Under the pieces are notes generated by a model, which was given only the letters and a program-made list of their open reading frames with translations, did not search any database and had not been told where the DNA came from. Below are positions 38,356 to 60,931 of a stretch of DNA of 64,000 bases, one piece after another (the stretch's first letter is position 1; each line of letters starts with the position of its first letter). Origin of the DNA: an archaeon (GTDB taxonomy: Archaea; Nanobdellota; Nanobdellia; Woesearchaeales; JBDRAZ01); the NCBI GenBank assembly GCA_043823195.1, contig JBDRAZ010000103.1, forward strand, positions 42,038-106,037, written 5' to 3'. A program made the position numbers and the translations under genes.

Positions 38356-39657
38356 ATGAACATCGCAGTAATTGGAACCGGATATGTCGGCCTGACTGTC
38401 GGCGCATGCCTTGCAAACCTCGGCAACGACGTGATATGCGCCGATAAGGCGAAGGAGAAGATTGAAAACCTCAAAAAAGGCGTGCTCCCTATCTACGAGC
38501 CCGGACTGAAGGAGATTGTGGACCGGAACGCAGCAGAGGGCAGGCTCAGCTTCACCACTGATGCAGCCTCAGCCGTGAGTACCTCGGATGTCATATATAT
38601 TGCTGTCGGAACCCCTTCGGGTGAAGATGGCTCAGTGGACCTGTCCCAGGTCAGGGATGCGGCGCAATGCATTGGCCGGAACATGCATTCCTGCAAGATT
38701 GTTGTGGTCAAGAGCACTGTTCCTGTCGGCACATCCGGAAAAATCAGGGAGATCATCAGGGACAATCAGGCAGAGCCATATGACTTTGACATGGTGTCAA
38801 ACCCGGAGTTCCTGCGTGAGGGTTTTGCAATACAGGATTTTACCAGTCCCGACAGGATAGTGGTGGGGGCAGACAATGACGGGGCCAGGGAGACCATGGT
38901 TTCGATATACAAGGCAATAGAGCGGACAGGCAAGCCGATTTTGTTCACAGACATAAACAGCTCTGAGATGATCAAGTACGCGAGCAACGCGTTTCTTGCA
39001 ACAAAAATATCCTTCATCAATGAGATCGCAGGGCTCTGCGAGATTGCCGGCGCGGATATCAAGATGGTTGCAAGGGGAATGGGGCTTGATACCAGGATAG
39101 GCCCGAGGTTTCTCCAGGCAGGGGCCGGCTATGGGGGGAGCTGCTTTCCGAAAGATGTTAAGGCGCTTATTGCGACCGGCAGGGATAACGGGCTGAAGCT
39201 GTCAATACTTGAGGCTGTGGAAGATGTCAACCGCAGCCAGCGCAGGGTTATACTGGAAAAGGTGAAACGCTTGCTGCCGGATCTCAAAGAAAAAAAGATC
39301 GCCGTCTGGGGTCTTGCATTCAAGCCAAATACCGACGACATCAGGGAAGCCCCGGCAATTGAGATCATCCAGGAACTTCAGAAAGAGGGGGCGGCCATCC
39401 ATGCCTTTGATCCTGCCGCAGTTGAGACCTCAAGGGAGGTAATTCCTGACGCAGTGTTCCACAGGAAGGCCCTCGATGCGGTCAGGGGGGCTGACCTGCT
39501 CCTCATAATGACTGAGTGGGACGAGTTCCGCGAGCTTAACTTGAAGAAGCTCAGGGCCCTGATGGGCTCTCCCAACATTGTGGATGCAAGGAACATCTAT
39601 GAGCCGAAGGACATGTGCAGCCTTGGCATTAATTATGCCGGGGTGGGCCGGAAATGA
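38356..39657 (+). CDS. ugd: UDP-glucose 6-dehydrogenase
   Basis: [30 protein letters not shown].., catalytic GGSCFPKD, 433 aa. Confidence 0.8.
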
Positions 39658-40616
39658 GAATCCTGGTCACCGGTGGGGCAGGCTTTCTTGGAAGCCACCT
39701 GTGCGATTATCTCCTGGCCAGAGGCCACAGCGTAATCTGCATGGACAACTACATTACCGGGAAGAGGGACAACATCGGCCACCTTCTCGGAAAAGAGGGC
39801 TTTGCCGTTAGTGAGCACGATGTTACTAAGTATATCCGCCTGGAGGGCAGGCTTGATGCGATCCTGCATTTTGCGTCCCCTGCGTCCCCCATCGACTATC
39901 AGCAGATACCCATCAAGACGCTTAAGGTTGGCAGCCTCGGCACCCATAATGCCCTGGGCCTGGCCCTTGCCAAAAAGGCCAGGTTCCTGCTGGCCAGCAC
40001 ATCTGAGGTTTACGGCGATCCGAAGGTTCATCCGCAGCCCGAGACATACTGGGGCCACGTAAATCCTGTGGGCCCGAGGGGCTGCTATGATGAGGCCAAG
40101 CGCTTTGCAGAGGCAATTACAATGGCATACCATCGCGCGCACAAGGTCGACACCAGGATTGTCAGGATATTCAACACATACGGCCCGAGGATGAGGGCAT
40201 CAGACGGAAGGGTCGTCCCGACCTTCATCAGCCAGGCGCTCAGGAACGAGCCCATCACTGTGTTTGGCGATGGGTCACAGACAAGAAGCTTCTGCTACGT
40301 CGCCGATCTGATCGAAGGCATATACCGGCTGCTTGAGTCCCGGCCTGAACGTGGGCCCGGCAATGAGCCTGATGTTCACGACCCGGTGAACATAGGCAAT
40401 CCGCACGAGATGACTGTCCGGGGGTTTGCAGAGAAGGTGATTGCATTGACCGGCAGCAGCAGCAGGATCGTGCAAAAGCCGCTTCCCATAGATGATCCGC
40501 TGGTAAGGCAGCCGGATATATCGCGCGCAAGGAAGCTGCTGGGCTGGGAGCCAAGGGTTTCCCTGGAAGAGGGCCTTAGCCATACCATATCGTTCTTCCG
40601 GGACAATAACCTTTAA
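39654..40616 (+). CDS. UDP-glucuronate decarboxylase (UDP-xylose synthase) family SDR
   Basis: [18 protein letters not shown].., YDEAKR, about 320 aa, directly downstream of ugd with a 4-nt overlap. Confidence 0.7.
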
Positions 40617-40623
40617 ATAAGCT

Positions 40624-41814
40624 ATGACATCTTTCCATCATATGACGCCCCTGGCCATTGACGGCGGAAAACCTGTAAGATCTGAACCTCTTCCAATATC
40701 CCGTGTCGAGGTCGGCGCCAGAGGGATCGCTGCAGTGACCGGTGTTCTGGCAAGCGGCCAGATCTCGCGCGGCAGCATGCCCCTTGAGTTTGAGAAGAGA
40801 TTCGCCCGGATGGTTGGAGCCAAAGAGGGGGTTGTTGTCGGTTCCGGGACCGCTGCGCTTCATCTGGCAGTCAAGTCACTCCATCTGCCCGTGGGCTCAG
40901 AGGTCCTTGTGCCCAGCTTTACCTTTGTTGCAACAGCCCTCGCCCCGGTCTACTGCAGCCTGAAGCCGGTTTTTGTGGAAATCGATCCTGACACGCTGAA
41001 CATTGATCCTGCTGACCTGGAGAGAAAAATCACACCGAAGACCAAGGCCGTCATACCTGTCCATTATGGCGGCAGGGTCTGCGATATGGGCGCGATAGGC
41101 AAAATCGCCGGAAAGCACAATCTGAAGGTGATCGAGGATGCTGCCCATGCCATCGGGGCTAAATGCAGCGGGCGCATGGTGGGCTCACTATCGGACATGA
41201 CCTGCTTTTCATTCTATGCAACAAAGAACATAACCGGCGGGGAGGGCGGCATCATAACAACAGACAGCAGGGGACTGGCAGAAGGGATGCGCCTTATGAA
41301 AGCCCATTGCATGGCACCGCTCAATGGCCTGCCCCACGCATCGGGATATTACGATGTAACCGGCGAGGGCTACAACTATCATCTCAGCAATCTCAACATT
41401 GCGCTTGTCTCATCACAGCTGGGCATTCTCAATGATGTAACAAAAAAGAGGAGGGAGATTGCAGCCAAACTAAGCGAAAGGCTCTCCAGGATTGCCTGCG
41501 TTGAGGTCCCTGCCTCAGTAAAAGACCACGTATATCATCTTTACACAATCAAGCTTAATACCCGGATGCTGAGGGTCTCCAGAGATAAGGTAGTTGAAGC
41601 GCTTCTCGCTGAAAACATAGGGTGCGGGGTCTACTACAGGCCGGTGCACCGGTTCTCATATTTCATCAGGCGTTTCGGGGCAGCCAGGCTTCCTTCCACC
41701 GAGGATGTATCCGGACGCATCATCACTCTTCCCATTTATCCTCTCATGACTGACAGCGACATAAATGATGTCTGCATTGCGGTGGAGAAGGTAACATCTT
41801 TTTATATGAAATAG
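40624..41814 (+). CDS. DegT/DnrJ/EryC1-family PLP-dependent sugar aminotransferase
   Basis: FSFYATKNITGGEGGIITT with canonical Lys. IEDAAHAIGA. Confidence 0.7.
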   Translation: MTSFHHMTPLAIDGGKPVRSEPLPISRVEVGARGIAAVTGVLASGQISRGSMPLEFEKRFARMVGAKEGVVVGSGTAALHLAVKSLHLPVGSEVLVPSFTFVATALAPVYCSLKPVFVEIDPDTLNIDPADLERKITPKTKAVIPVHYGGRVCDMGAIGKIAGKHNLKVIEDAAHAIGAKCSGRMVGSLSDMTCFSFYATKNITGGEGGIITTDSRGLAEGMRLMKAHCMAPLNGLPHASGYYDVTGEGYNYHLSNLNIALVSSQLGILNDVTKKRREIAAKLSERLSRIACVEVPASVKDHVYHLYTIKLNTRMLRVSRDKVVEALLAENIGCGVYYRPVHRFSYFIRRFGAARLPSTEDVSGRIITLPIYPLMTDSDINDVCIAVEKVTSFYMK

Positions 41815-41818
41815 CGGG

Positions 41819-42772: not shown

Positions 42773-42805
42773 ATGGCTGCAGGACAGATGGCTGCTGAAT
42801 AACAG

Positions 42806-44242: not shown

Positions 44243-44319
44243 TAACGATACCACATATAACGATACTATGTATAGGGATACGATGTATAACGATACTATG
44301 CTGATGATACCATGATAAC
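44235..44319. repeat. 73-bp repeat-rich spacer flanked by 12-bp direct repeats TACCATGATAAC (44235-44246 and 44308-44319) with internal (T)ATAACGATAC(TATG) reiterations
   Basis: Read directly. Collapsing the direct repeats would give an ATGA overlap of the wzx stop with the next gene's start. Confidence 0.6.
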
Positions 44320-45460
44320 CAGAGTCGGACCGGAAATTGGCATTTGGGATATCATTGTCTCACTGGTACCAAGGCCCGGGGACAGCAGGGCGGATTTCGC
44401 GGAGTCTCTCAGGTCATTCTTCGGCGTCAAAAAAGCCGTCCTGTTTCCGAGCGGGAGGTCGGCCCTCTACTACATCCTGAGGGCGCTGCCGCAAAAGAGG
44501 GTATACCTGCCCGGCTTTGACTGCAGGGCGGTTGTTGAGGCCGCCCTCCTTGCGGGAAAAAAGCCGATTTATGTTGATGCCGGCACTGACGGCCTTAACA
44601 TGGACCCGCAGGACCTCAGGAAGAAGATTCAGGCGGATTCGATTGTTGTTGCCACGCATCAGCTGGGCATGCCATGCGACCTGGACGGGATATCCTCCGT
44701 ATGCAATGAAAACAGCTGCATCATGATCGAGGACAACGCCGCATCGTTCGGGGCAGAGTACCGCGGGCGCAGGACCGGGGCCTACGGCGCAGCCTCGATA
44801 GTGAGCTTTGAATATACAAAGGCCCTCACAGCTGCCCGCGGCGGTGCCGCGCTATTTCAGGATGCTGCCCTGTGCGAAAAAGTAGAGGCCCTCTGCGCAA
44901 AAGAAATGGCCGTGCAGCCCCTCTCCACCAGAATAAAGAAGCTCGTGCGTCTGACCGGGTTTCTGCTGGCAACCAAATCATATGTCTACAGGCACCTGGT
45001 TCTTCCCCGGCTGAAAAGGCAGGGCTATTACACAGACAAGGGCGTCCCTGTCCTTTCAAAGGACCCTGAACTCTACTTTGAGGGCATGACCCGGTTCCAG
45101 GCCAGGCTCGGATTGCTCGGGATGGGCCGGATCAGGAGAACCCTCATGCGGAGAAGGTCGATTGCCGATGCCTATGGCCGGTCTCTGGGCGGTATAATTC
45201 ATCTGATTAAGGAGGGCGAACACACGGTACCCTCCTATATGAGATATCCGGTCCTGGTCACGGGCAAGATGGATTTCTACAAAGAAGTCCTGGCGAAGGG
45301 GGTGGACCTGGGCTTCAGTTTCAGCTATGTCTGCGGCGATATGAAAAACCTTAAAAACACCAAAAAGATCGCTGAACAGATACTGAATCTGCCGATGAGA
45401 TCAGCACTCTCTGATGCGGACGTAGCCGCCATAATTCGTGCAGTTAAGGACTCGATATGA
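44312..45460 (+). CDS. DegT-family PLP-dependent sugar aminotransferase-like protein (divergent)
   Basis: IEDNAASFGA.., SFEYTKALTAARGG (Lys present, GEGG degenerate). Confidence 0.5.
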   Translation: MITRVGPEIGIWDIIVSLVPRPGDSRADFAESLRSFFGVKKAVLFPSGRSALYYILRALPQKRVYLPGFDCRAVVEAALLAGKKPIYVDAGTDGLNMDPQDLRKKIQADSIVVATHQLGMPCDLDGISSVCNENSCIMIEDNAASFGAEYRGRRTGAYGAASIVSFEYTKALTAARGGAALFQDAALCEKVEALCAKEMAVQPLSTRIKKLVRLTGFLLATKSYVYRHLVLPRLKRQGYYTDKGVPVLSKDPELYFEGMTRFQARLGLLGMGRIRRTLMRRRSIADAYGRSLGGIIHLIKEGEHTVPSYMRYPVLVTGKMDFYKEVLAKGVDLGFSFSYVCGDMKNLKNTKKIAEQILNLPMRSALSDADVAAIIRAVKDSI

Positions 45461-46836
45461 AATTCCTGTTTGCAGTGCCAAGATTTGAAAGGGATACGAA
45501 CCCCCCGCTGGGTGTTGCCTATCTGGCGGCCTCGCTTAGGCAGGCCGGGTTTCCGGTTGACATTCTCGATCCGACGTTCGGGGGGGAAAGCTATGCAAAA
45601 AAAGAGCTGGGCCGCAGGAAATTCGATGTTTTTGGCGTCTCAGCCTACACCAAGAACTATGAATCCGGCCTGGAGCTGGCACGCCTGGCAAGGGCCCATA
45701 ATCCCAAATGCAGGATTGTGTTCGGCGGCGTCCACCCGACTATACTCGGTGATGAGGTGATCCAGGAGCCGCTTGTCGACATTGTTGTTCTGGGTGAGGC
45801 AGAAGAGACAATTGTGGATCTGGCCGTTGCGCTATCCAAGGGAAAACCGCTTTCCGAGGTTAAGGGCATCATCTACAAGGAGAACGGCCGCCCCCGCACG
45901 ACAGCGCCCCGTTCGCTGATCCGGGATCTTGACAAGATACCCTTTCCTGCACGCGACCTCCTTCCTATGAGGGAATATCTCAACGCCAACTACGGCAGGG
46001 CTGCCTGGTCTGTAAAGCAGCCCGCGACGTCCGTGATAACCTCCCGGGGGTGTCCGTACCGGTGCACATACTGTTCATCCCACCTTATGTTCGGAAGGAC
46101 GGTGAGGTTCCGGTCGCCTGAAAACATTGTCGGCGAGATCAGGGCGCTCATCAGGGATTACGGCATCAGGGGCCTGACATTTGTTGATGACACCTTCACG
46201 CTGAAGGCAGACAGGATTGAGGGGCTTCATGCGCTTCTTAAAAAGGAATCTATCAGGATTGAGTGGATCTGCAACGGCCGTGTTGACACAGTCACAAAGG
46301 ACATGCTGCGCACAATGAAGAAGTCAGGATGCGAGGTCATTGCCTTCGGCGTGGAATCAGGCAACCAGAGGATACTTGATGATATTCTCCACAAGAACCT
46401 GAAGCTTGCCCGGGTCAGGGAAGTATTCAGATGGTGCAGGGAGCTTAAGATCAAGACAGATGCCTATTTCATGATCGGGATCCCCGGCGAGACATTGCAG
46501 GACATAAGGAACACGATCAGGTTTGCCAAGGAGATCAGGGCAGATGCTGTGAATTTCTCGATCACAAGCCCGATGCCCAAGACTGAGCTGTATGACATCG
46601 CGCAAAAGCACGGGAAGATCATTGCAGAGAAATACAGTGACTTCGACTATGCAAAGAAGTCAGTCTTTGTCTCCGATACCCTTGACCCTGAGACAATTGA
46701 AAAATGGAAGCGTTACGCAAACCGGAGCTTCTATTTTGATCCGCGCTATGTTCTTAGGCAGCTGCTCTCAATCAGGGGCACAGGCGATATAATAAAGAAG
46801 CTCAAGGGTTTTCTTATGGTCCTGGACAGGCAATAG
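45457..46836 (+). CDS. B12-binding (class B) radical SAM enzyme
   Basis: B12-domain N-terminus, SRGCPYRCTYCSS, FVDDTF, FGVESGNQ. 4-nt overlap with the upstream gene. Confidence 0.7.
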   Translation: MKFLFAVPRFERDTNPPLGVAYLAASLRQAGFPVDILDPTFGGESYAKKELGRRKFDVFGVSAYTKNYESGLELARLARAHNPKCRIVFGGVHPTILGDEVIQEPLVDIVVLGEAEETIVDLAVALSKGKPLSEVKGIIYKENGRPRTTAPRSLIRDLDKIPFPARDLLPMREYLNANYGRAAWSVKQPATSVITSRGCPYRCTYCSSHLMFGRTVRFRSPENIVGEIRALIRDYGIRGLTFVDDTFTLKADRIEGLHALLKKESIRIEWICNGRVDTVTKDMLRTMKKSGCEVIAFGVESGNQRILDDILHKNLKLARVREVFRWCRELKIKTDAYFMIGIPGETLQDIRNTIRFAKEIRADAVNFSITSPMPKTELYDIAQKHGKIIAEKYSDFDYAKKSVFVSDTLDPETIEKWKRYANRSFYFDPRYVLRQLLSIRGTGDIIKKLKGFLMVLDRQ

Positions 46837-50823: not shown

Positions 50824-51702
50824 CTATTTTTTCCTGAACATGTCAGCGAGAAAGCCAAAGAGCCAGATCTGGATTCCTATGCTCAGCAGCAGCACAGTAA
50901 GCATAACCCTCGGCAGCCCGCCCACAGTTCCGGTAGTCATCAGATTAATTACAATCCACAGGCCGGTTCCCACTCCGCCCAGGCAGAACAGGCCCCCGAA
51001 CAGCCCGAAGAACTTGAGGGGCTCATAGTCCCGGTACACCCGGAATATGGTGATCCATGCCTTAATGGCGTATTCAAACGGGTTTCCCATAAGCCTGCTC
51101 TTCCCGTTCCGGCGCGAAAAGGTGACCGGAATCTCCTTGATCCGGAACTTGAGGTTTGCAGCCCTGATGATCTGCTCCTGGGTATAGGTGTATTTTGACA
51201 CGATGCTGATCTTCTCGGCAACCTCCCTTGTGAACGCCCTGAATCCTGTCTGGCCGTCTGATATCTTCATCTGCGTGATATTGGAAATTACCTTTGAAAA
51301 TGCCCTGTTGCCCAGCCTTTTGATTAGCGGCATGCCCTCTATGCGCCCCTTGAATCTGCTCCCAAGAACAAGGTCATAGCCCTTGCCAATCTGCTGGATG
51401 AGCCGCGGAATATCAGAACAGGAGTACTGGTTATCGGCGTCAATATGGACTATCACGTCGGGTTTAAGCTCAAGGCATTTCTGCATCTCTGTCCTGAAGG
51501 TCTCTGCAAGGCCGTAGTTGCGGGAATGCCTGACGACGAGCGCACCCTTTTCCCTGGCTGCTTTTGCAGTGTTATCGGAGGATCCGTCGTCTACCACGAG
51601 CACCTGGTATTTTTGCCCCCGAAGAGCCGAGTTTACCCCGTCCAGGACTTTTGCCACGGTCTTTTCCTCGTTGAAGGCCGGTATTGTCACGACTATATTC
51701 AT
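50824..51702 (-). CDS. glycosyltransferase family 2 (Dpm1/polyprenyl-phosphate glycosyltransferase-like) with C-terminal TM helices
   Basis: MNIVVTIPAFNEE..VVDDGSSDNT..HIDADNQ (DxD), two C-terminal TM segments. Confidence 0.7.
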   Translation of the reverse strand: MNIVVTIPAFNEEKTVAKVLDGVNSALRGQKYQVLVVDDGSSDNTAKAAREKGALVVRHSRNYGLAETFRTEMQKCLELKPDVIVHIDADNQYSCSDIPRLIQQIGKGYDLVLGSRFKGRIEGMPLIKRLGNRAFSKVISNITQMKISDGQTGFRAFTREVAEKISIVSKYTYTQEQIIRAANLKFRIKEIPVTFSRRNGKSRLMGNPFEYAIKAWITIFRVYRDYEPLKFFGLFGGLFCLGGVGTGLWIVINLMTTGTVGGLPRVMLTVLLLSIGIQIWLFGFLADMFRKK

Positions 51703-51749: not shown

Positions 51750-52703
51750 TTATTGGGTGACTGTTTCTCTCCAATATTCAAGCAGGTCCCTTAATGTTTG
51801 TTCAAAAGGGATCGTGGGTTTCCAGCCGGTTGCTTCATAGAATTTGGTGCAGTCTCCCAGCAGAATGGGGACATCGCTTGGCCTCATGCGCTCGGGATCA
51901 GGGATGACCTTGATGTCTGCCTTTGTCATGCTCAGCAGCGTGTCCAGCACCTTCTGAATGCTCCAAGCTGTTCCGGAGCATATGTTGTACCGCTCTCCGG
52001 GCTTGCCCTTTTGCACGGCCAGGTAGTAGCCCTTAACCATGTCGCGCACATCTGTGAAATCCCGCCGGGCCTGCAGGCTCCCAACATGGATCTCTGGTTT
52101 GGCGCCCCTTTCTATCTCAGCAATCTGCTTTGAGAAGCTGCTGCATACAAATACTTCCCCCCTGCGGGGGCCGGTGTGGTTGAATCCCCTGGTTATAATC
52201 GCTTTTATGCCGTAAGAACGAAAGTACTGGTATGATGCCATGTCCTGTGCGACCTTTGAAACTCCGTATGGGCTCAGCGGCCGGAACGGATTGGTTTCCT
52301 TGATGGGGATCTCATCCTCTTTTACAAGCCCGTACTCCTCTGATGAGCACGCCACCTGTATCCTTACATCGATATCTGACTTCCTTACAGCCTCGAAAAG
52401 GTTTACTGTCCCGATGACATTCGTCTCGATTGTGTTGTTGGGAGCGATCCATGATGTTGGCACAAAGCTCTGTGCAGCCAGATGATATATCTCGTTAGGC
52501 TGCACCTCATTCAGGACCTTGTATATGCTGTGCGAGTCATTCAGGTCTGCCTGGATCAGGTTAAGCTTGTCCTTGATGTGCCTGATATTTGCAGTGTTGC
52601 TTCTCCACCGCAGGGTACCATAGACTTCATATCCCTTATCCAGAAGCAGATCAGAGAGGTGGCTTCCGACAAACCCAGAAATGCCTGTTATCAGCGCCCT
52701 CAT
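51750..52703 (-). CDS. GDP-mannose 4,6-dehydratase/reductase-like SDR
   Basis: MRALITGISGFVGSHLSDLLLDKGYEVYG.., YGVSK. Confidence 0.6.
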   Translation of the reverse strand: MRALITGISGFVGSHLSDLLLDKGYEVYGTLRWRSNTANIRHIKDKLNLIQADLNDSHSIYKVLNEVQPNEIYHLAAQSFVPTSWIAPNNTIETNVIGTVNLFEAVRKSDIDVRIQVACSSEEYGLVKEDEIPIKETNPFRPLSPYGVSKVAQDMASYQYFRSYGIKAIITRGFNHTGPRRGEVFVCSSFSKQIAEIERGAKPEIHVGSLQARRDFTDVRDMVKGYYLAVQKGKPGERYNICSGTAWSIQKVLDTLLSMTKADIKVIPDPERMRPSDVPILLGDCTKFYEATGWKPTIPFEQTLRDLLEYWRETVTQ

Positions 52704-52756: not shown

Positions 52757-52848
52757 ATTGAACTTTTCGCAGGGCACCCCCGCACAGCGAATCCATGGGG
52801 TGAAAAACTCCGCACCTTAGTGCAGGGGCCGTCGGCGGATTTTTATGA
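52757..52848. repeat. copy D of the recurrent GC-hairpin/U-tract element (ttgaacttttcgcagggcacccccgcac..aaaaactccgcaccttagtgcaggggccgtcggcggatttttatga)
   Basis: Shares its blocks with copies A, B, C and E. Confidence 0.5.
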
Positions 52849-54289
52849 ATTTCAGGATGGACTGCGCAATCGGCGATATCGTGCCCAGGGTCCATTTCAG
52901 TTCCCGGTAGGATCTGATGGTCAGAAGCATCTCCACCATCTTTCGCGGCCTAAAAAAGAACCCGAGGTAGGCCTTGCGCTGGAATGCCCTGAGCTCTTCT
53001 TCAGTTAGCTTCGGGCACCTGTGATATAGGTTAGCATCATAAAAACCGCTCTGGTAGACCAGGGCTGACTCGTCCTTAAGCAGGCCTGACTTTTTCATTG
53101 ACTCATACATCTCTGTTCCCGGGAAAGGCGTAAGCATGCAGAAGTTTGCAATTGATGGGTTGCTCTTTATTGCGAACCTGATTGTCCGCTCGATAGATTC
53201 CCTGCTGTCATTTGGAAATCCCAGGATAAAGAACCCGACTGTGATTATCCCGGCCTTTCTGAACCACGCCAGCGCCCTGATGACTTTGTCGGGGTCCAGG
53301 CTTTTCCTGATTGATTTCAGCACATCCCCATCAGCGGATTCAATGCCCACACCCGCCTTGAACACGCCCGCGCGTTTCATCTTCATGACAATGTCCCAGG
53401 TTAGCCTGTCAGCCCTCACTCCATTCTGCAGGTTGATGAGGATGTCCAGCTTCCGCTCAATGATCAGGTCCAGAATCCTGCCGGCCCTTTCGATATCAAG
53501 AGTAAAGTTGTCATCCAGCACATCAAGTTGGCCAATCCCGTATTTCCTGACAAGCATCTCTATCTCATCAACAACATTCTCCGGGCTTCTGGCGCGGTAT
53601 CGCTTACCGAATATGCTGGAGTTGCAGAATGTGCACTGATATGGGCAGCCGCGGCTGCTCATTATGACCCCAACGGGAAACCTCCTCGCACGGGACTCGT
53701 ATTTGCGCAGGGGTGGCATGATGTCATAATCAGGAAAGGGAATCGCATCAAGATCCTCAATAAGTTTCCGCGGCTCGGTCCTGAAAAACTTTCCTTTTTT
53801 CAGGTAGGCAACCCCCGCCACCTTGTCAGGCTGCCTTCCCTCGCAGATTTCGAGGAATGTCTGTTCGCTTTCCCCGACAAACGCAATATCTGCGCCCGAG
53901 AGTGCAAGCATCTCTTCGGGATTCGAGGATGTCAGGGGTCCCCCTATGCATACCATGGCATCATGGGCGGCCTTTATCGCCTTGGCAATCTGTATTCCTG
54001 ATGCAGCCAGGATGACATTCATGTGGATGCCAACAACATCGGGTCTGAATGCGGAGGCCTCTTTCAGCACTGCCTCTAATCCCAGCCCCAGGGCATTTGC
54101 ATCAATTATCCGGACATGATACTGATTTATTGTTGCATATTTTTTCAGATAGGATGAGAGGTAGCCGAGGCCTATCGGCGGATACATTGTTGACTCATTA
54201 ATCCCCTTGCTCAGTGTGGCCGGAGGATTGATGAGTAGTATTTTTTTGGCACTCATTCTGGATTCAGACAATGCGCGATCACCTGACAA
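52817..54289 (-). CDS. B12-binding (class B) radical SAM enzyme
   Basis: KKILLINPP..(B12 domain)..SRGCPYQCTFCNSS..LDDNF..GIESADG. The start may be the internal MSAKK at 54256. Confidence 0.7.
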   Translation of the reverse strand: MSGDRALSESRMSAKKILLINPPATLSKGINESTMYPPIGLGYLSSYLKKYATINQYHVRIIDANALGLGLEAVLKEASAFRPDVVGIHMNVILAASGIQIAKAIKAAHDAMVCIGGPLTSSNPEEMLALSGADIAFVGESEQTFLEICEGRQPDKVAGVAYLKKGKFFRTEPRKLIEDLDAIPFPDYDIMPPLRKYESRARRFPVGVIMSSRGCPYQCTFCNSSIFGKRYRARSPENVVDEIEMLVRKYGIGQLDVLDDNFTLDIERAGRILDLIIERKLDILINLQNGVRADRLTWDIVMKMKRAGVFKAGVGIESADGDVLKSIRKSLDPDKVIRALAWFRKAGIITVGFFILGFPNDSRESIERTIRFAIKSNPSIANFCMLTPFPGTEMYESMKKSGLLKDESALVYQSGFYDANLYHRCPKLTEEELRAFQRKAYLGFFFRPRKMVEMLLTIRSYRELKWTLGTISPIAQSILKFIKIRRRPLH

Positions 54290-54962
54290 GCTCTCTGAAT
54301 ATGATCCTTAACAGAAGCCATCCGGTCGCAAAAGTATGGGCGGTGCTTTCCCCCCCGATGCGGGGTTCCTCCTTCGTGGGGATCTCCTTTATCCTGTAGC
54401 GCTTCTTGAGGGCCCGGATTGAAAGCTGATATTCAATCCCAAATCCCTCTGTATCCGGGCGGAGCGCCAGGAATTTGTCTCTCTTCACGGCCCGGAAACC
54501 GTTTATTGCATCGGTCAGCCTGCCGTTCCAGAGAAGGTTTGAGATTGCAGTGAAAACCTTGTTTCCTATGCCACGGATCGGGAAAGGGAGGTGGCTGTCA
54601 TCTGCCTGAGCACCCTTCATGAACCGGGATGCCACTGACATGTCATAGCCTTTTTCCAGCCAGCTGATCAGCCTGATGATGTCGTTCGGGTCTTCGTTGC
54701 CGTCCGGACCGAAGTACACGATATGCTCATTTTTGGCGATCCGTGCCCCGATCCTGAAGGCCTCGGCCCTGCCGCGTTTTTTCTGCAGGACAATTCTCAC
54801 GCCCTTCTTCTTGAGGAATTCAACGCTTCCGTCAGTGGACCCCGGATCAATCGCAAATGTTTCATCGAGCCTGTTAATCGGAATCTTGCTGTAAAGTGAT
54901 TTCAGCCCTTCGATCTCGTTGTAATTCAGGATCACCAGCGTGGCTTTTATTTTATTTTTCAT
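54279..54962 (-). CDS. glycosyltransferase family 2
   Basis: LVILNYNEIEG..DPGSTDGS..YFGPDGNE. Confidence 0.65.
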   Translation of the reverse strand: MKNKIKATLVILNYNEIEGLKSLYSKIPINRLDETFAIDPGSTDGSVEFLKKKGVRIVLQKKRGRAEAFRIGARIAKNEHIVYFGPDGNEDPNDIIRLISWLEKGYDMSVASRFMKGAQADDSHLPFPIRGIGNKVFTAISNLLWNGRLTDAINGFRAVKRDKFLALRPDTEGFGIEYQLSIRALKKRYRIKEIPTKEEPRIGGESTAHTFATGWLLLRIIFRELVR

Positions 54963-55929
54963 TTTCTTTCCTCTTGTACCATTCGATAGTCTGCCTCAGG
55001 CCCTCTTTCAGCCGGACCTTAGGGGCAAATCCGAGGATTTCTCCGGCTCTGGATGAATCGCAGTTCCGCCTGGGCTGCCCGGTTGGCTTCGCAGTATCAT
55101 AATGGATGCTGATGTCTTTTTCAGATGCGTCGGCAATCATCCTCACGAGGTCTTTTATTTTTATTTCTTCAACAGTGCCCAGGTTGATGGGGCCCTTTCC
55201 GCAGCCCTTTTCTGCTGCCAGGAGGATTCCCTCTGCAAAATCAGTAACATACAGGAATGATCTGCTCTGTTCGCCGTTTCCCCATACGACCAGAGGGTCC
55301 TCGCCTGAGAAAACCCTCCTTATCAGTGCGGGTATGACGTGCGACTTTTCAGGGTCAAAGTGGTCACGGGGCCCATAGGCGTTGTAGGGGCGCACAACAG
55401 CAATTGCCATGCCGAATTCAGTTTCGTAGAGCTTGGCCTGCAGCTCTGCCATCCTCTTTGCCCAGCCGTACCCTTCATTGGTTGGCTCAGGGACACCCTC
55501 GAATCCCTCTGACTCGGGGGTTGGGATTGTGCAATCCCGCCGGTATACGCAGGCCGAACTGACCATGACCAGCCTGCTTACCCTGTTAACCCTCGCAGCC
55601 TCAAGCACATTTATCTGCATCATCATGTTGGACCTGAACATGGTGCCCGGGTGCTCCTTGTTGTAGCCGATGCCCCCTACCTTAGCGGCAAGGTGCAGGA
55701 TGATATCCATGCCGCGCGCAGCCCTGGCTGCATCCCCAGGGTCTTTCAGGTCGCACTTGACAAACTCTATCTGTTCTCTTACTCTCTCTAGGTTTTTCAG
55801 GTTCCCGTTTTCCAGGTTATCCGCAACAGTCACCCTGGCCCCCTTTTCAACAAGGAGTTCAGCTGCATGGCTGCCTATGAATCCCGCTCCGCCGGTTACC
55901 AGAACCCGTTTATCATTCCAGAAAGTCAT
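54952..55929 (-). CDS. NAD-dependent nucleotide-sugar epimerase/dehydratase (SDR)
   Basis: [18 protein letters not shown].., YGWAK. Confidence 0.7.
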   Translation of the reverse strand: MTFWNDKRVLVTGGAGFIGSHAAELLVEKGARVTVADNLENGNLKNLERVREQIEFVKCDLKDPGDAARAARGMDIILHLAAKVGGIGYNKEHPGTMFRSNMMMQINVLEAARVNRVSRLVMVSSACVYRRDCTIPTPESEGFEGVPEPTNEGYGWAKRMAELQAKLYETEFGMAIAVVRPYNAYGPRDHFDPEKSHVIPALIRRVFSGEDPLVVWGNGEQSRSFLYVTDFAEGILLAAEKGCGKGPINLGTVEEIKIKDLVRMIADASEKDISIHYDTAKPTGQPRRNCDSSRAGEILGFAPKVRLKEGLRQTIEWYKRKENEK

Positions 55930-57149
55930 TTTAGGATCTTCTTGAAAACACCCACAATATAATCGATGTCATCTGCCTCGAGGTATTGGTGGCAGCCTAT
56001 ATAAAATGCATTCTCGCCAATGTAATCTGCATTTGGCAGCCTGTTCCTGTAGGTCTCCCTCAGGTGTGCGTAGGCCGGCTGCTGGGTCGGGATACTTCCG
56101 AAGAGAGGCCTCGTCTCCACACCGTTTTCCTCAAGCTGCATCCTCAGCCTCTTCCTTGGGATGACATTCGGCTTATTTATGAGAATGGGATATGCAAGAT
56201 AGCTTATATCTGTTGAGAATCTGGGCAGCTGCAGAATATCGCTGAACTCCTCAAGGCCCTCATTAAGCAGCCTGACGTTTTCCTGCCTTGCCTTTATTAT
56301 CCACTCGGCCTTCTTGATCTGTGTAAGCCCCAGGGCAGCCTGAAACTCCGTTGTTTTGAAGTTCAGGCCAATTATATCATGATGGAATCTTGGATCAAAA
56401 TCATGGCCCTTATCCGAATCCATATGCGGACATTTGCCGGTGGCCCGCGTGCATACATTGCAGTCGCACATGCGTCCGTTGGCCTTTATCTTCCTGACGA
56501 GCCGGCTAATCTCCTTGTCATTTGTTGTTATTGCACCCATCTCTCCGACCTGGATGTTATGGGCAATGTAAAATGAGAAGTCTGAAAGATGGGAAAGGGA
56601 TCCGGTGCGCTTTCCTTTGTAGAGGGAGCCATGGGCCTGCGCAGAATCCTCAAAGACCACCATGTCATGCTCTTTTGCTATGCGGTTTATGCCATCCATG
56701 TCGCAGGGGTAGCCCATCAGGTGGACCGGCAGCACAACCGAGTGCTCAGAGGCATCGTCACTGTTTTCCAGGGCCTCTTTAATGTTTTCGGGGGTAATGT
56801 TGAAAGTCTCCCTGTTGACATCAACGTAGACCGGGTCAAGATTGGCTGCGACAACCGCATTGCTTGTCGCAATGTAGGTTATGGGTGTGGTGATCACCTT
56901 TGGCCGGTTTCGGAGGTCATGGATATTTTTCAGCGCCATGAGCCCGGCAAGGATGGCCGAGGTGCCCGAGCTAAGCACGACGCAATGGTCGGTTCCGACA
57001 AAACCAGACCACTGTTTCTCGAACTCCCTGACTTTCCTGCCTTCGGATATCCGTCCGCTTTCCACGACTTCCAGGATGGCAGACCGCTCTGCATCGCCTA
57101 GCCTGAAATCGCCAACATGAATCTTTTTCATACGCTGCCCCCTTATCAC
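55926..57149 (-). CDS. DegT-fold PMP-dependent sugar 3-dehydratase-like enzyme (E1/ColD-like; His replaces the Schiff-base Lys) with Cys cluster motif
   Basis: SFYIAHNIQVGEMGAITTND (AHN in place of AK/TK), FEDSAQAHGS, C-x-C-x2-C-x6-C (CDCNVCTRATGKC). Confidence 0.5.
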   Translation of the reverse strand: MIRGQRMKKIHVGDFRLGDAERSAILEVVESGRISEGRKVREFEKQWSGFVGTDHCVVLSSGTSAILAGLMALKNIHDLRNRPKVITTPITYIATSNAVVAANLDPVYVDVNRETFNITPENIKEALENSDDASEHSVVLPVHLMGYPCDMDGINRIAKEHDMVVFEDSAQAHGSLYKGKRTGSLSHLSDFSFYIAHNIQVGEMGAITTNDKEISRLVRKIKANGRMCDCNVCTRATGKCPHMDSDKGHDFDPRFHHDIIGLNFKTTEFQAALGLTQIKKAEWIIKARQENVRLLNEGLEEFSDILQLPRFSTDISYLAYPILINKPNVIPRKRLRMQLEENGVETRPLFGSIPTQQPAYAHLRETYRNRLPNADYIGENAFYIGCHQYLEADDIDYIVGVFKKILK

Positions 57150-57277
57150 TTCTGCAAGATAGCTACGTGTTTAAATAAGTTTTGCTAGTTGAATCCAAAC
57201 TTATGCTGTTGATATCCTGTTCACAGCAGGCCGGCTCCCCAGGCCCGCCTCCCCGGCACCCATCTGGCCTCAGTTTT

Positions 57278-57314
57278 ATGGAGGGCATGCTCCGCATATC
57301 AGCGGATTTTTAGA
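57278..57314. repeat. copy E of the recurrent element (ggagggcatgctccgcatatcagcggatttttaga)
   Basis: Matches the cgcagggc..ccgcac..cggcggattttta consensus. Confidence 0.4.
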
Positions 57315-57385
57315 GCTTCGCTCTTGAAAGGCTCCCCGCCCTAAATGCTAAGTTTTAAATAATTCTGTGATAACCTCAAATAAAA

Positions 57386-58672
57386 ATGAGATTCAGCAAA
57401 ATATGCATTGTCGGGATGGGGTATGTCGGGCTAACGCTCTCAGTGGTTCTGGCTGAGAAGGGTTACAAAGTGCACGGCATGGAGATCAACAAGGACGTAG
57501 CTGCACAGTTGAATAGGGGAAAGCCGCATTTTCATGAAAACCGGCTGGACGTTCTGCTGAAAAAGCATCTTAACAATAATCTCACAATATCTGATGATGC
57601 CCCTGATGATTACGAGGTTTTCATAATCTGTGTCGGTACACCCCTTGACAAGGGCACCAAGAAGCCAATCCTGGATTATATCATGCGGTCTGCCGAGGCG
57701 ACGGCAAAACACCTTTCTGACGGGTCTTTGGTGATTCTGAGAAGCACGGTTCCCGTCGGCATAACAAGGAATGTTGTCAAGCCGATACTGGAGACCGCGG
57801 GCAAGAAGTTCTACCTGGCGTTCTGTCCTGAACGGACAGCTGAGGGAAACGCACTCAGGGAGCTGCGTGAACTGCCGCAGGTAATCGGCGGCCTGGACCA
57901 GGACAGCGTGGACCTTGCTGTAGACCTTTTCAGGAAAGTGACTCCGACAACAATAGAGGTATCATCCCTTGAGGCTGCTGAGATGGTCAAGCTCCTTAAC
58001 AACACATATCGTGATCTTACCTTTGCCTATGCAAACGAAGTCGCCAGGATATGCGAGCATGCCGGTCTGTCTGCCCTTGAAACGATCAGGGCAGCAAACC
58101 TTGGCTATTTTAGGTCAGATATCCCGATGCCCGGATTTGTAGGCGGCGCATGCCTGGAAAAGGACCCCTACATACTTGCAGAATACTCCGGAAAAAGAGG
58201 CTATGACCCAAAGCTCGTCAGGCAGGCGAGGGAAATAAACGAGGCCCTTCCGGGCCACATAGCTGACACGGTTAGCAGGATGTTATCTGAGAACAATGTA
58301 ACCAGGGCAAAGGTGTTCATCAGCGGATTCGCATTCAAAGGCAGGCCCGAAACTGACGATCTCCGCGGATCCCTTACGATACCGCTGGCAAATGAGCTGC
58401 AGAGAAATCACAGCGTCTTTGCTCATGATTTTGTTGTAAAGCCGGAGATGCTGGAATTGGCAGGATACAAGGCCTGCTCAATTGATGACGGCTTCCGGGA
58501 TGCCGATTGTGTCATCATAGCCAACAACCACAACTCCTATCAGAAACTCAATTTCGGAAAACTGCTCCCCACTATGAAGCGGCCTGCTCTGCTCTATGAT
58601 GTCTGGAGAATCTTTGAAAAGGACGAGATTGCGCAGGATGGGGTTATTTACGGGGGGGTTGGGATTGGCTAA
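57386..58672 (+). CDS. nucleotide-sugar dehydrogenase (UDP-glucose/GDP-mannose dehydrogenase family; WecC-like)
   Basis: ICIVGMGYVGLTLSVVLAEKGYKVHGMEIN.., GGACLEKD catalytic Cys. Confidence 0.7.
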   Translation: MRFSKICIVGMGYVGLTLSVVLAEKGYKVHGMEINKDVAAQLNRGKPHFHENRLDVLLKKHLNNNLTISDDAPDDYEVFIICVGTPLDKGTKKPILDYIMRSAEATAKHLSDGSLVILRSTVPVGITRNVVKPILETAGKKFYLAFCPERTAEGNALRELRELPQVIGGLDQDSVDLAVDLFRKVTPTTIEVSSLEAAEMVKLLNNTYRDLTFAYANEVARICEHAGLSALETIRAANLGYFRSDIPMPGFVGGACLEKDPYILAEYSGKRGYDPKLVRQAREINEALPGHIADTVSRMLSENNVTRAKVFISGFAFKGRPETDDLRGSLTIPLANELQRNHSVFAHDFVVKPEMLELAGYKACSIDDGFRDADCVIIANNHNSYQKLNFGKLLPTMKRPALLYDVWRIFEKDEIAQDGVIYGGVGIG

Positions 58673-59645
58673 AGTGCTCGTCACAGGCGGTGCAGGCTTT
58701 ATTGGGTTTCATCTCTCCAGGCACCTGGCAGGACAGGGCTACGATGTAACAATCTGTGATAATTTCTTCAGGGGCAGCAGGGATGACGAATTAAAAGCCC
58801 TCCTGAAACAGCCGAATGTCAGCCTGATTGAATGCGACATGGCAGACAGTTCCTGCGTGACCCTGCTGGGGGCGGGCTATGATTATGTTTACCATCTCGC
58901 AGCAATCAACGGCACCAGGTATTTCTACGAGATTCCTGACAAGGTCCTGCGGGTTAACATATTGTCTGCAATCAATGTGCTGGACTGGTTCGTGAAAAGC
59001 GGTTCAGGCAAAATCCTGTTTGCATCTTCATGCGAGGCATACGCATCCAATAAGGACCTTCCCCTGCCTACGCCGGAGGACGTCCCCCTTGCGGTTTCAG
59101 ACGTGAAAAATTCCCGCTTTTCCTATGGCGGGAGCAAAATCGCGGGCGAACTGCTGTTTTACAACTATGCAAAGGTGCATAAATTCAGAATGACCATACT
59201 GCGCTATCATAACCTCTATGGCCCGCGCATGGGCTTTGAGCATGTGGTTCCTGAATTCTGCATGAGGCTTATAAAAAAGGAGGATCCTTTCAGGATTATT
59301 GGCGGCAAAGATACCCGAAGCTTCTGCTACTGCGATGACGGGGTCCGCGCAACCCAGCAGGTCATGGAATCAGAAAAGACCGACGGGGAGATCATCCATA
59401 CAGGCAACAGCACCGAGGAGATCAGCATTGTTGACCTGGCCGGCAGGCTTATGGATATTGCAGGTTTCCATCCTGAGATAAAGGTATCTCCTGCACCCGA
59501 GGGGAGCGTTAACAGGCGGTGCCCTGACCTGACAAAGATAAAGGCCCTGACAGGATACGAGCCGGAAATCATGCTGGAGGATGGCCTGAAAAAAACACTG
59601 GCCTGGTATAGGGATAACCATTTCGGGCACAAACTGGCAAAATGA
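58665..59645 (+). CDS. NAD-dependent nucleotide-sugar epimerase/dehydratase (SDR); TTG/GTG start near 58665-58674
   Basis: [21 protein letters not shown].., YGGSKIAGE. The ORF track begins at 58596 inside the upstream gene. Confidence 0.6.
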   Translation: MAKVLVTGGAGFIGFHLSRHLAGQGYDVTICDNFFRGSRDDELKALLKQPNVSLIECDMADSSCVTLLGAGYDYVYHLAAINGTRYFYEIPDKVLRVNILSAINVLDWFVKSGSGKILFASSCEAYASNKDLPLPTPEDVPLAVSDVKNSRFSYGGSKIAGELLFYNYAKVHKFRMTILRYHNLYGPRMGFEHVVPEFCMRLIKKEDPFRIIGGKDTRSFCYCDDGVRATQQVMESEKTDGEIIHTGNSTEEISIVDLAGRLMDIAGFHPEIKVSPAPEGSVNRRCPDLTKIKALTGYEPEIMLEDGLKKTLAWYRDNHFGHKLAK

Positions 59646-60931
59646 ATAAGGAAGAAATCCGGAACCGTATTTCAGAGCTGGTTACCCAGTACTATGGCAG
59701 CGAAAAACGCGGGTTTGTCCCAGGCAAGACCAGGATTGGCGTGGGTGCTCCCGTATATGATGACAAAGAAGTGATGCATGTCATTGACTCCCTCTTCTCC
59801 GGCTGGATCTCGCAATCCAGGAACGTCGCTGACCTTGAAAGGGACTATGCAGCCTATCATGGGGTCAAGTATGCTGTTGCCCTTAATTCAGGATCTTCTG
59901 CAAATCTGATCGCGCTCCTGGCCCTCATTGAGTCCGGCAAGATCAAACAGGGTAGCGAGGTCATCGTTCCTGCTACTACTTTCCCTACAGTGGCATCCCC
60001 AATTATTCAGCTTGGGCTGAAACCGGTCTTTGTTGATGTTGACGGGGCGTCATTTAATCTTGATCCTGAAGCAGTCCGCTCTGCAATCACAGCCAAAACC
60101 AGTGTTATCATGCCTGCGCATTTTCTCGGCTATCCGGCAGACATGGAGCAGATGGTGCAGATCGCCAGGGAACACAGCCTGCACATAATTGAAGACTGCT
60201 GCGAGGCGCACGGCGCCAGGTTCAGGGGGAAGCTGGTAGGCACCTTTGGGGACATGGGCACCTATTCATTCTTTGTTGCCCATAACATAACCTGCGGCGA
60301 AGGCGGCATGATAATCACTGATAATGCGGAGTACTATGAGCTGGCAAGGTCACTGCGCGCCTTTGGGAGGGCCTGCACCTGCCCAATTTGCCTGGTCACA
60401 CAAGGTAAGCCATGCAAGCTCAGGGATTTCCATGACCCCGTGCTTGCCAACTACAACATCAGGCAGGTGTTTCTCAGGCTTGGCTATGCGCTTAAGATGA
60501 CTGAGATGCAGGCTGCCTTCTGCATTGAACAGCTGAAAAAGCTGGACAATTTCAACTCCCAAAGAACTGAAAACGCAGAGTTCTACACCGAACACATTCG
60601 TTCAGGGCATCTGCAGCTGCCCGCGGCAGGCGCAGGCATAGCCCATGCATATTATGGATATGCAATCGTTATCAGAAAAGATGCGCCCTTCAGCAGGGAT
60701 CAGTTTGTGAAGCACCTGGAGGACCGCAGGGTTGAGACACGGCCGTTCTTTGGCGGATCACTCCCTGACCAGCCGGCCTTCAGGAATCAGGACATTAAGA
60801 TTGCCGGCAAACTGCCAAATTCTGACTGGGTACGGGATTACGGTGTTTTTATCGGCTGCCATCCCGGCATCGGCAAGGAAGAAAGGCAATATGTGGTTGA
60901 TGTCATCAGGTCCTTTACGTCTCAGTATTGA
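59642..60931 (+). CDS. DegT-fold PMP-dependent sugar 3-dehydratase-like enzyme (E1/ColD-like) with Cys cluster motif
   Basis: SFFVAHNITCGEGGMIITDN (His for Lys), IEDCCEAHGA, C-x-C-x2-C-x7-C (CTCPICLVTQGKPC) reminiscent of the E1 C-x-C..C-x7-C Fe-S ligands. Confidence 0.5.
   Translation: MNKEEIRNRISELVTQYYGSEKRGFVPGKTRIGVGAPVYDDKEVMHVIDSLFSGWISQSRNVADLERDYAAYHGVKYAVALNSGSSANLIALLALIESGKIKQGSEVIVPATTFPTVASPIIQLGLKPVFVDVDGASFNLDPEAVRSAITAKTSVIMPAHFLGYPADMEQMVQIAREHSLHIIEDCCEAHGARFRGKLVGTFGDMGTYSFFVAHNITCGEGGMIITDNAEYYELARSLRAFGRACTCPICLVTQGKPCKLRDFHDPVLANYNIRQVFLRLGYALKMTEMQAAFCIEQLKKLDNFNSQRTENAEFYTEHIRSGHLQLPAAGAGIAHAYYGYAIVIRKDAPFSRDQFVKHLEDRRVETRPFFGGSLPDQPAFRNQDIKIAGKLPNSDWVRDYGVFIGCHPGIGKEERQYVVDVIRSFTSQY

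Follow-up and report, generated by a model that had tools for sequence, protein, structure and literature searches.

Two divergent modules around putative His-type sugar 3-dehydrases in an archaeal nucleotide-sugar island

To our knowledge, the only characterized sugar 3-dehydrases are E1, ColD and SpnQ, all of them bacterial. E1 and SpnQ reduce their sugar-ene intermediate through a [2Fe-2S] cluster, ColD hydrolyses it and recovers pyridoxamine 5′-phosphate (PMP) from glutamate, and SpnQ, an Fe–S dehydrase without a dedicated reductase, uses general reductases and transaminates in the absence of a reductase (PMC8987622). According to the same 2022 review of nucleotide-sugar dehydratases, the substrates of 3-dehydrases are all 4-keto-6-deoxyhexoses, and no 3-deoxy-4-keto-pentose pathway has been described (PMC8987622). 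Here we analyse a 64-kb window, the whole stretch of DNA under study, from a 160-kb contig (JBDRAZ010000103.1) of a Woesearchaeales archaeon; all coordinates are window positions. It contains two genes, at 55926–57149 and 59642–60931, for DegT-fold proteins in which a His takes the place of the Schiff-base Lys. With some reservation, we favour the reading that this island consists of two divergently transcribed, independent modules, each organized around a PMP-dependent His-type 3-dehydrase with a four-Cys loop.

The first gene, on the minus strand, encodes a protein of 407 amino acids (hereafter 55926; NCBI MFH1850451.1, whose start lies 6 residues further in), and the second, on the plus strand, one of 429 amino acids (59642; NCBI MFH1850454.1). 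Both match the Pfam family PF01041 DegT_DnrJ_EryC1 (298 and 337 bits, respectively); 55926 is predicted to be a PMP-dependent nucleoside diphosphate (NDP)-4-keto-6-deoxyhexose 3-dehydrase and 59642 an E1-like 3-dehydrase. Columns were assigned by searching the Protein Data Bank (PDB) with phmmer and by aligning both proteins with E1, ColD and 240 homologues, 120 retrieved for each, using MAFFT. By both methods, His197 in the motif SFYIAHN of 55926 (codon 56559–56561) and His214 in the motif SFFVAHN of 59642 (codon 60281–60283) align exactly with His220 of E1 and with the catalytic His of ColD. A first-pass annotation of this DNA had proposed a DegT fold with His in place of the pyridoxal 5′-phosphate (PLP) lysine for both proteins, and had raised the concern that the Lys might only be displaced by a few residues; no Lys lies within eight residues of either His. 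The E1 mutant H220K (3bb8) and two further DegT proteins of the window, 40624 (ATKN) and 44312 (YTKA), which the annotation had called canonical aminotransferases, all have Lys in this same column. The His is invariant in both sets of homologues (120 of 120 in each), and the residue preceding it is Ala in both proteins, as in E1. The two proteins thus belong to the superfamily by fold and by replacement of the Schiff-base Lys, stand as candidates for PMP-type 3-dehydrases as first suggested, and are predicted from these features to deoxygenate C3 with PMP.

E1 is the nearest characterized structure to each. For 55926, the best PDB match was Yersinia E1 (3bcx) with 173 bits; for 59642 it was the same structure with 286 bits over residues 1–425 and 37.5% identity. 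Against the RfbH equivalog model NF011936 (cut-off 423), the scores were 249 and 384 bits, respectively. An AlphaFold2 model of 55926 (predicted template-modelling score 0.81) matched E1, ColD and perosamine synthase in Foldseek with template-modelling scores of 0.75–0.79, and GDP-perosamine synthase was its top non-dehydrase match by sequence as well as by fold.

Each protein also carries a loop with four Cys: CDCNVCTRATGKC in 55926 (residues 228–240, C228-x-C230-x2-C233-x6-C240, at 56430–56468) and CTCPICLVTQGKPC in 59642 (residues 245–258, C245-x-C247-x2-C250-x7-C258, at 60374–60415). Both loops are homologous in position to the C251–C261 loop of E1, which upholds the earlier suggestion that these motifs resemble its [2Fe-2S] region. 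Agnihotri et al. reportedly assigned, in 2004, the E1 ligand set as C193-x57-C251-x-C253-x7-C261, a spacing that we confirmed on the E1 sequence. E1 itself has four Cys inside the loop (C251, C253, C257 and C261). When 59642 was compared with 3bcx, the His and all five E1 Cys, these four and C193, were aligned; its C187 (60200–60202) is the C193 equivalent, and every E1 ligand position is kept. By contrast, 55926 reads EDSAQA where the E1 type has EDCC and lacks C193, so that only its four loop Cys could act as ligands, and the column holds Cys in none of its 120 homologues. Among the homologues of 59642 it is Cys in 116 of 120, including 109 loop-less proteins, and it is also Cys in cluster-free ColD; the residue is therefore no marker of Fe–S binding. 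Conservation of the C193 column does not follow that of the Cys loop.

Conservation of the Cys motifs in orthologues, which the first-pass annotation had singled out for checking, held for one family and not for the other. Homologues of 55926, at about 60–67% identity, have the loop as C-D-C-P-[VI]-C-x6-C with fixed spacing in 120 of 120 cases, whereas C-x-C-x2-C-x7/9-C is found only in the nearest 7 of the 120 homologues of 59642. In a scan of a genome collection, at least 188 species proved to carry the 55926 family; in the best 80 species-level loci, SFYxAHN is present in all 80 and the loop in 77. Both the position of the loop and its lack of variation favour a metal cluster. In a neighbour-joining tree of His-type DegT proteins, built without support values, the 55926 family forms a deep separate clade next to which ColD branches, and the 59642 family groups with the true E1 clade as its sister. 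CxCxxC loops occur in basal branches of all three groups of this tree, which suggests that the loop is ancestral and was repeatedly lost. The entire 3-dehydrase superfamily may have started out with the four-Cys loop, the glutamate chemistry of ColD being derived from it.

The 55926 family is also widely distributed. The first-pass annotation had considered such a pathway unusual for an archaeal glycan, a view that does not hold at the genomic level, as 37 of the 80 best loci are archaeal: Methanobacteriaceae, the cultured Methanobrevibacter cuticularis, Methanoperedens, Methanosarcinales, Bathyarchaeia, Thermoplasmata and many DPANN. Carriers outside the archaea include Scalindua and other Brocadiales, Omnitrophota, Chloroflexota and Clostridia. 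Our literature search found no archaeal 3,6-dideoxyhexose. In several Scalindua species (L034, L039, L050, L059 and L062) and in another member of the Brocadiales (L029), the 55926-family gene adjoins a divergent Lys-type DegT gene together with a short-chain dehydrogenase/reductase (SDR) gene. A paper on the S-layer O-glycan of Kuenenia reports an unidentified 174-Da sugar unit (PMC5088730), for which it gives no genetic link to the 55926 family.

The reaction course proposed below builds on observed homology, on the positions and conservation of the His and Cys residues and on conserved gene neighbourhoods; from these we infer the cofactors, electron donor, nucleotide carrier, substrates and products of both modules. 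By extrapolation from E1, ColD and SpnQ, PMP would be joined to an NDP-4-keto-sugar as a Schiff base at the C4 keto group, and His197 of 55926 or His214 of 59642 would take the C4′ proton of PMP as the 3-hydroxyl is expelled. The resulting sugar-ene intermediate would be reduced in two one-electron steps via an Fe–S cluster on the Cys loop. A search of all large open reading frames (ORFs) of the window against Pfam found no E3-type reductase (Fer2/FAD_binding_6/NAD_binding_1) and no ferredoxin, nor were any present among the clustered conserved neighbours in 61 loci; the E3-like partner for which the first-pass annotation advised a search was thus absent from both. Because no E3 reductase is encoded in either, we propose that, as for SpnQ, general low-potential carriers such as ferredoxin or flavodoxin may supply the electrons, which would fit the strictly anaerobic host range of the families.

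The neighbours of 55926 suggest the pathway in which it may act. Counts of neighbours come from 61 of the best 80 loci, those of at least 9 kb. Its most conserved partner is a gene like that at 51750–52703 (minus), which encodes an SDR of the Gmd/Rmd clade with the motif SSEEYG (best PDB matches Rmd 2pk3, 291 bits; GDP-heptose 4,6-dehydratase, 215 bits; Gmd, 191 bits), predicted to be a GDP-hexose 4,6-dehydratase and/or 4-reductase. A relative of this gene lies within 3 kb of the 55926 homologue in 33 of the 61 loci, mostly directly upstream. In about 20 loci, an SDR gene like that at 54952–55929 (minus) lies directly downstream. This Fcl/GME-like protein has the catalytic-Cys motif SSACVY, its best PDB matches are GDP-L-fucose synthase (167 bits) and GDP-mannose 3,5-epimerase (161 bits), its score of 200 bits with the NCBIfam Fcl model is under cut-off, and it is predicted to be a 5-epimerase/4-reductase acting after the dehydrase, an analogue of ColC. 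The order SDR, His-type DegT, SDR recurs in 16 of the 61 loci, and at least one of both SDRs is found in 38, in archaea and bacteria alike. Since this is the architecture of Gmd, ColD and ColC with a Cys-loop dehydrase in the middle, we read module 1 (57149 to about 49126, minus) as a GDP-linked, colitose-type 3,6-dideoxyhexose pathway with an E1-style Cys-loop enzyme, not as a CDP pathway of E1 type. In this pathway, 51750 would give GDP-4-keto-6-deoxyhexose, 55926 would take off its O3, and 54952 would epimerize and reduce the product to a colitose-type GDP-3,6-dideoxyhexose. A 3,6-dideoxyhexose product, as the first-pass annotation had it for both proteins, finds good support in conserved synteny in the case of 55926; the claim probably does not extend to 59642, whose partners are a sugar 6-dehydrogenase and a UXS-like SDR.

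Further genes of module 1, all on the minus strand, may modify and transfer the sugar. The gene at 52817–54289 encodes a B12-binding radical S-adenosylmethionine (rSAM) protein (PF02310 and PF04055; HpnJ 198 and BchE 175 bits, all under cut-off), possibly a methylase or an enzyme of other radical sugar chemistry. B12-binding rSAM genes lie within 5 kb of the 55926 homologue in 23 of the 61 loci (15 of 30 archaeal and 8 of 31 bacterial), and this recurrent linkage is notable in its own right. The best family matches of the B12-binding rSAM proteins of the island are HpnJ, BchE, P-methyltransferases and the diol-dehydratase AprD4, all far under cut-off; C-methylation by them, which the annotation had entertained, is possible but unproven. 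The carbamoyltransferase that it had reported is present at 49126–50814 (PF16861, 205 bits; PF02543, 137 bits; NodU, 121 bits, cut-off 1000), and O-carbamoylation by this NodU/CmcH-type enzyme is plausible. Two members of glycosyltransferase family 2 (GT2) accompany them: an AglJ- or dolichyl-phosphate (Dol-P)-hexose-transferase-like protein at 54279–54962 (PF00535; TIGR04182 AglJ, 92 bits, and DPhHxTase, 60 bits, both under cut-off), and an AglJ/ArnC-like polyprenyl-phosphate sugar transferase with a C-terminal transmembrane region at 50824–51702 (PF00535; AglJ 152, Dol-P hexose transferase 123 and ArnC 77 bits), homologues of which are found in 24–25 of the 61 loci. These AglJ-like enzymes would put the sugar, possibly after modification by the B12-binding rSAM protein and the carbamoyltransferase, on dolichyl phosphate for transfer by a GT-C enzyme. 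Beyond the carbamoyltransferase gene, genes for a GT4 and a PMT_2 protein follow on the same strand.

59642 stands in a different context. It is the third gene of a cassette on the plus strand (57386–60931) that begins with an NDP-sugar 6-dehydrogenase at 57386–58672, with three UDPG_MGDP_dh domains and a TIGR03026 score of 352 bits, above cut-off; its PDB matches are UDP-N-acetylmannosamine dehydrogenase 4r16 (192 bits) and, second best, CalS8 (187 bits). Next comes an SDR at 58596–59645, UXS-like in its motifs (SSCEAY, YGGSK and RRCPD) and with human UXS1 as best PDB match (130 bits), which gene context predicts to be an NDP-hexuronate 4-oxidase/decarboxylase releasing a 4-keto-pentose. This gene overlaps that of 59642 by 4 nt. 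A profile of 11 cassette SDRs, in which the motifs S-S-E, Y-x3-K and R-R-x-P-D align, scored highest with UXS1 (211 bits), followed by GalE (about 177), RmlB and dTDP-glucose 4,6-dehydratases (about 161) and ArnA (about 142). Besides the window, the trio with overlapping genes recurs in a TARA ocean contig (L086), in a JGI contig (L087), in a Methanocellales metagenome-assembled genome (MAG) with a loop-less enzyme (L088) and in loci L091, L092, L098 and L099, and the dehydrogenase or the SDR adjoins the relative of 59642 in L001, L002, L089 and L094. A metagenome scan yielded at least 80 loci, mostly distant E1-clade genes that serve as a contrast set. The cassette linkage is present at 11 of the 16 loci listed with at least 41% identity, whereas the dehydrogenase and SDR are almost absent from the 60-odd loci below 41%, which are of the E1 clade. 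Cassette carriers include Methanocellales, DPANN archaea, Patescibacteria and marine metagenomes.

A dehydrogenase, a UXS/ArnA-type SDR and a DegT enzyme together form the logic of Ugd/ArnA/ArnB and of CalS8/CalS9/CalS13. Given the association of module 2 with a sugar 6-dehydrogenase and a UXS-like SDR, 59642 probably does not act on a 6-deoxyhexose. The dehydrogenase would yield a uronic acid, the UXS-like SDR would oxidize C4 and decarboxylate it to an NDP-4-keto-pentose, and 59642 would take off O3 to give NDP-3-deoxy-4-keto-pentose; module 2 would thus follow Ugd/ArnA/ArnB with a dehydrase instead of the aminotransferase. On gene context, the most economical reading, which we put forward as possible though short of probable, is that 59642 deoxygenates C3 of an NDP-4-keto-pentose. 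That the cassette as a whole encodes an undescribed 3-deoxy-pentose pathway, with an E1-like 3-dehydrase acting on the NDP-4-keto-pentose of a uronate decarboxylase, is a tentative proposal that we hold with more doubt than confidence. Its product may be an NDP-3-deoxy-pentose, or a 2-acetamido-2,3-dideoxy-pentose if the pathway starts from an N-acetylhexosamine, used by an ArnC/ArnT-like route. GT2 (ArnC/AglJ-like) and PMT_2 (ArnT-like) genes commonly follow the cassette, PMT_2 genes in L087 and L088; in the window, a PMT_2/ArnT-like membrane glycosyltransferase of the GT-C type (60915–62774, minus; PF13231) adjoins it. A further SDR gene is often found after the cassette. In a metagenomic protein of 742 amino acids (P0065), a loop-less His-type DegT domain that is 50% identical to 59642 is naturally fused to a C-terminal SDR domain (STDRLYG...YTASK), which supports a coupling of dehydrase and subsequent reductase. 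Our literature search found no 4-keto-pentose 3-dehydratase, and if the proposal is true, module 2 would represent the first 3-dehydrase substrate other than a 6-deoxyhexose.

Several points weigh against the reading of two modules with cluster-dependent dehydrases. Because 55926 lacks the E1 ligand C193 and the loop spacing of both proteins is unlike the C-x-C-x3-C-x3-C of E1, Fe–S binding is an extrapolation, and the Cys loop of 55926 was modelled by AlphaFold2 with a predicted local distance difference test score below 50, uninformative on metal binding. In the 59642 family, 113 of 120 relatives are loop-less although they stand in the same cassette (L088 is an example), so the chemistry of the family is not strictly loop-dependent; loop-less members may work like ColD, and so perhaps may 59642. 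For module 1, 51750 is closest to the reductase Rmd and is no proven dehydratase, its S-S-E-x-Y-G motif is common to Rmd and Gmd-type dehydratases and does not discriminate between them, and there is no canonical Gmd or ManC within the window. For module 2, UXS1 is only 11 bits ahead of the next SDR match, and both the decarboxylase function of 58596 and the release of a 4-keto-pentose are read from context. Some of these points would suit a redox-free course like that of ColD, in which the loop binds Zn or is structural, the sugar-ene is hydrolysed with release of ammonia and PMP is restored from L-glutamate. It would also agree with the lack of a reductase partner in the window and the conserved neighbours, with the presence of Cys in the C193 column of ColD and loop-less proteins as well as its absence from 55926, and with ColD itself, which shows that the fold works without Fe–S (PMC8987622). 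We nevertheless consider such a course, though a serious rival, unlikely for these proteins: the loop is homologous by position to the [2Fe-2S] loop that experiments established for E1, the invariance of its four Cys at fixed spacing throughout the homologues of 55926 points to strong selection, the carriers are overwhelmingly anaerobes rich in reduced ferredoxin, and SpnQ provides the precedent of an Fe–S dehydrase without a dedicated reductase. Still further from our view is the idea that the two proteins are not dehydrases at all and carry out another PMP/PLP reaction, such as epimerization or the transamination seen with reductase-free SpnQ (PMC8987622), or are inactive paralogues. Their His is followed by Asn, as in aminotransferases, where E1 and ColD have His-His. 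However, 3-dehydrases are so far the only known proteins of DegT fold that lack the Schiff-base Lys, the His is invariant in 240 of 240 homologues, and the ORFs are full-length with conserved active-site motifs and belong to conserved operons that also encode the SDRs to be expected upstream and downstream of 3-dehydration in a pathway, so we give this idea very little weight.

The remaining alternatives concern the pathways. Under the classical E1/E3 scheme, both proteins would be orthologues of CDP-6-deoxy-L-threo-D-glycero-4-hexulose-3-dehydrase and make CDP-3,6-dideoxyhexoses of the abequose, paratose, tyvelose or ascarylose type, with E3 encoded elsewhere in the genome. E1 is the top match of both in the PDB and NCBIfam, many homologues are named 'CDP-6-deoxy-D-xylo-4-hexulose-3-dehydrase' by JGI pipelines, 59642 retains all E1 Cys ligands, and the window covers 64 kb of the 160-kb contig. 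This scheme is nonetheless improbable in our judgement, with both proteins under the RfbH equivalog cut-off and no cytidylyltransferase, CDP-glucose 4,6-dehydratase or E3 in the window or the conserved neighbours. The partner SDRs, which score at most 113 bits with CDP_4_6_dhtase TIGR02622 (cut-off 278), are either of GDP-sugar type or of UXS type with a dehydrogenase, true E1-clade loci (below 41% identity) have other neighbours, and 55926 belongs to a separate deep clade. It is also conceivable, although we rate it as rather unlikely, that module 2 is ordinary, in that 58596 is a 4,6-dehydratase, 59642 makes a 3,6-dideoxyhexose and the dehydrogenase serves another sugar of the same glycan. 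58596 scores 135 bits with LegB-type and 112 bits with dTDP-glucose 4,6-dehydratases, its S-x-E motif is common to dehydratases and decarboxylases, UXS1 leads other SDRs by a modest margin, and characterized 3-dehydrases all use 6-deoxy substrates (PMC8987622). The gene arrangement speaks for the 4-keto-pentose route instead: the dehydrogenase is the most conserved neighbour, the genes overlap and are translationally coupled in at least 8 loci whose environments and lineages are unrelated, and the combination of dehydrogenase, UXS/ArnA-type SDR and DegT enzyme is an established one that is present in Lys form at 38356–41814.

The wider island contains at least three nucleotide-sugar modules, each with its own Dol-P-type GT2 and PMT_2 (GT-C) genes, rather than genes for the one heavily decorated sugar that had been envisaged: ugd, a UXS-like SDR and a Lys-type DegT; the Rmd-like SDR, 55926 and the Fcl-like SDR; and the dehydrogenase, the UXS-like SDR and 59642. 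Two modules of widespread, uncharacterized families should therefore replace the single-sugar E1/E3 reading. The ugd gene, the UXS-like SDR and the five SDRs attributed to 38356–60931 are all there, the latter at 39654, 41819, 51750, 54952 and 58596, and the five class-B rSAM genes attributed to the same interval are found in the window as a whole, with only two inside the interval (45457 and 52817) and the others upstream (35873, 21445 and the split 20014/20711). The first of these modules, on the plus strand at 38356–41814, comprises ugd (38356–39657), a UXS/ArnA-like SDR with the motif STSEVYG (39654–40616) and a PseC/ArnB-like Lys-type DegT (40624–41814), and is predicted from sequence to be a 4-amino-pentose module like that for 4-amino-4-deoxyarabinose (Ara4N). 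With the His-type trio at 57386–60931 as its twin, this Lys-type module shows that one island holds both versions of the cassette.

55926 and 59642 belong to separate operons that diverge from a 236-bp intergenic region (57150–57385). Read from the sequence, this region has two A/T-rich, TATA-like TTTAAATA boxes at about 57171–57178 and 57353–57362, some 25–35 nt from the nearest start codon, a spacing that is consistent with archaeal promoters and short leaders. A scan of 57150–57385 for bacterial promoters and terminators gave results at chance level, with bacterial models that are inapplicable to archaea.

Elsewhere in the island, directly after a divergent Lys-type DegT gene (44312–45460), a B12-binding rSAM protein is encoded at 45457–46836 on the plus strand (PF02310 and PF04055; HpnJ 223 and BchE 214 bits, under cut-off). 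Upstream, at 12119–37324, lies an unusually dense run of rSAM genes that includes B12 types. It contains SPASM-type genes (13590, 14796 with a TPR tail, 26860, 27998 and 34712), genes with the HMPTM N-terminal Zn-ribbon (18726 and 22728) and plain rSAM genes (12119 and 32013), interleaved with PMT_2 GT-C genes (16582, with a C-terminal CBM_11 domain, and 29403), a CBM_11 protein gene (24126) and a type I phosphodiesterase gene (25236). A B12-binding ORF at 20014–20736 is followed, with a 26-nt overlap and in another frame, by an ORF at 20711–21448 that has only the C-terminal rSAM part; this looks like a frameshifted or split B12-binding rSAM gene, a pseudogene or an assembly error. Relatives of both His-type DegT genes stand in islands with two to four B12-binding rSAM genes and SPASM rSAM genes in a JGI contig (Ga0505005_0000222; L001), in Methanoperedens (L004 and L012) and in L020 and L023, and the combination of rSAM-rich regions with genes for exotic sugars is recurrent in archaea beyond this MAG. 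The window also encodes a short sugar-1-phosphate nucleotidyltransferase-like protein with an N-terminal extension of about 50 residues (37292–38116; weak Arch_glmU and ManC-like matches) and a GlgC-like nucleotidyltransferase of 460 amino acids (3845–5227).

Together, the two proteins point to two further large families of 3-dehydrases, abundant in anaerobic archaea and uncultured bacteria. The first would combine partners of the colitose type with an E1-type Cys loop; the second, which belongs to a cassette of uronate-decarboxylase type, may produce 3-deoxy sugars of a new class. If confirmed, they would widen the known repertoire of archaeal surface sugars, offer, in one cassette, a natural series of enzymes with and without the loop for asking why some 3-dehydrases need Fe–S, and supply testable candidates for unidentified glycan residues of methanogens and anammox bacteria. 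The enzymology would extend a known mechanism and does not overturn current views.

Among the described systems, E1 (AscC/DdhC/RfbH of Yersinia and Salmonella; 3bcx) shares with both proteins the fold, the His column, the preceding Ala and a Cys loop at the [2Fe-2S] site. The loop here is C-x-C-x2-C-x6/7-C, unlike that of E1, and the partners are GDP-type or UXS-type SDRs, with no E3 and no CDP-glucose genes. Neither protein should be filed as an E1 equivalog, since both fall under the RfbH cut-off and lack E3 and a CDP-glucose context, and 55926 in addition lacks C193. With ColD (2gms), which acts with Gmd and ColC, module 1 shares the layout of a Gmd-clade SDR, a His dehydrase and an Fcl-like epimerase/reductase. 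However, ColD lacks the Cys loop and relies on glutamate to recover PMP, whereas the 55926 family has four loop Cys, and 55926, at 28% identity, is no nearer to ColD than to E1; neither protein is a ColD, as the Cys loop is present and neither is closer to ColD than to E1. SpnQ, the TDP-4-keto-2,6-dideoxyglucose 3-dehydrase of spinosyn forosamine synthesis, pairs PMP and a [2Fe-2S] cluster with general ferredoxin or flavodoxin, a likeness drawn from its published description; it differs in belonging to actinomycete secondary metabolism and in using a dTDP-sugar. Module 2 has the same gene logic as Ugd/ArnA/ArnB/ArnC/ArnT of lipid A Ara4N and as CalS8/CalS9/CalS13 of the calicheamicin aminopentose, except that its DegT enzyme is of the His type and the predicted product is a 3-deoxy-4-keto-pentose, not a 4-amino-pentose. 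In sum, the cofactor logic of both modules would be E1/SpnQ-like, and the pathway logic colitose-like in module 1 and Arn-like in module 2.

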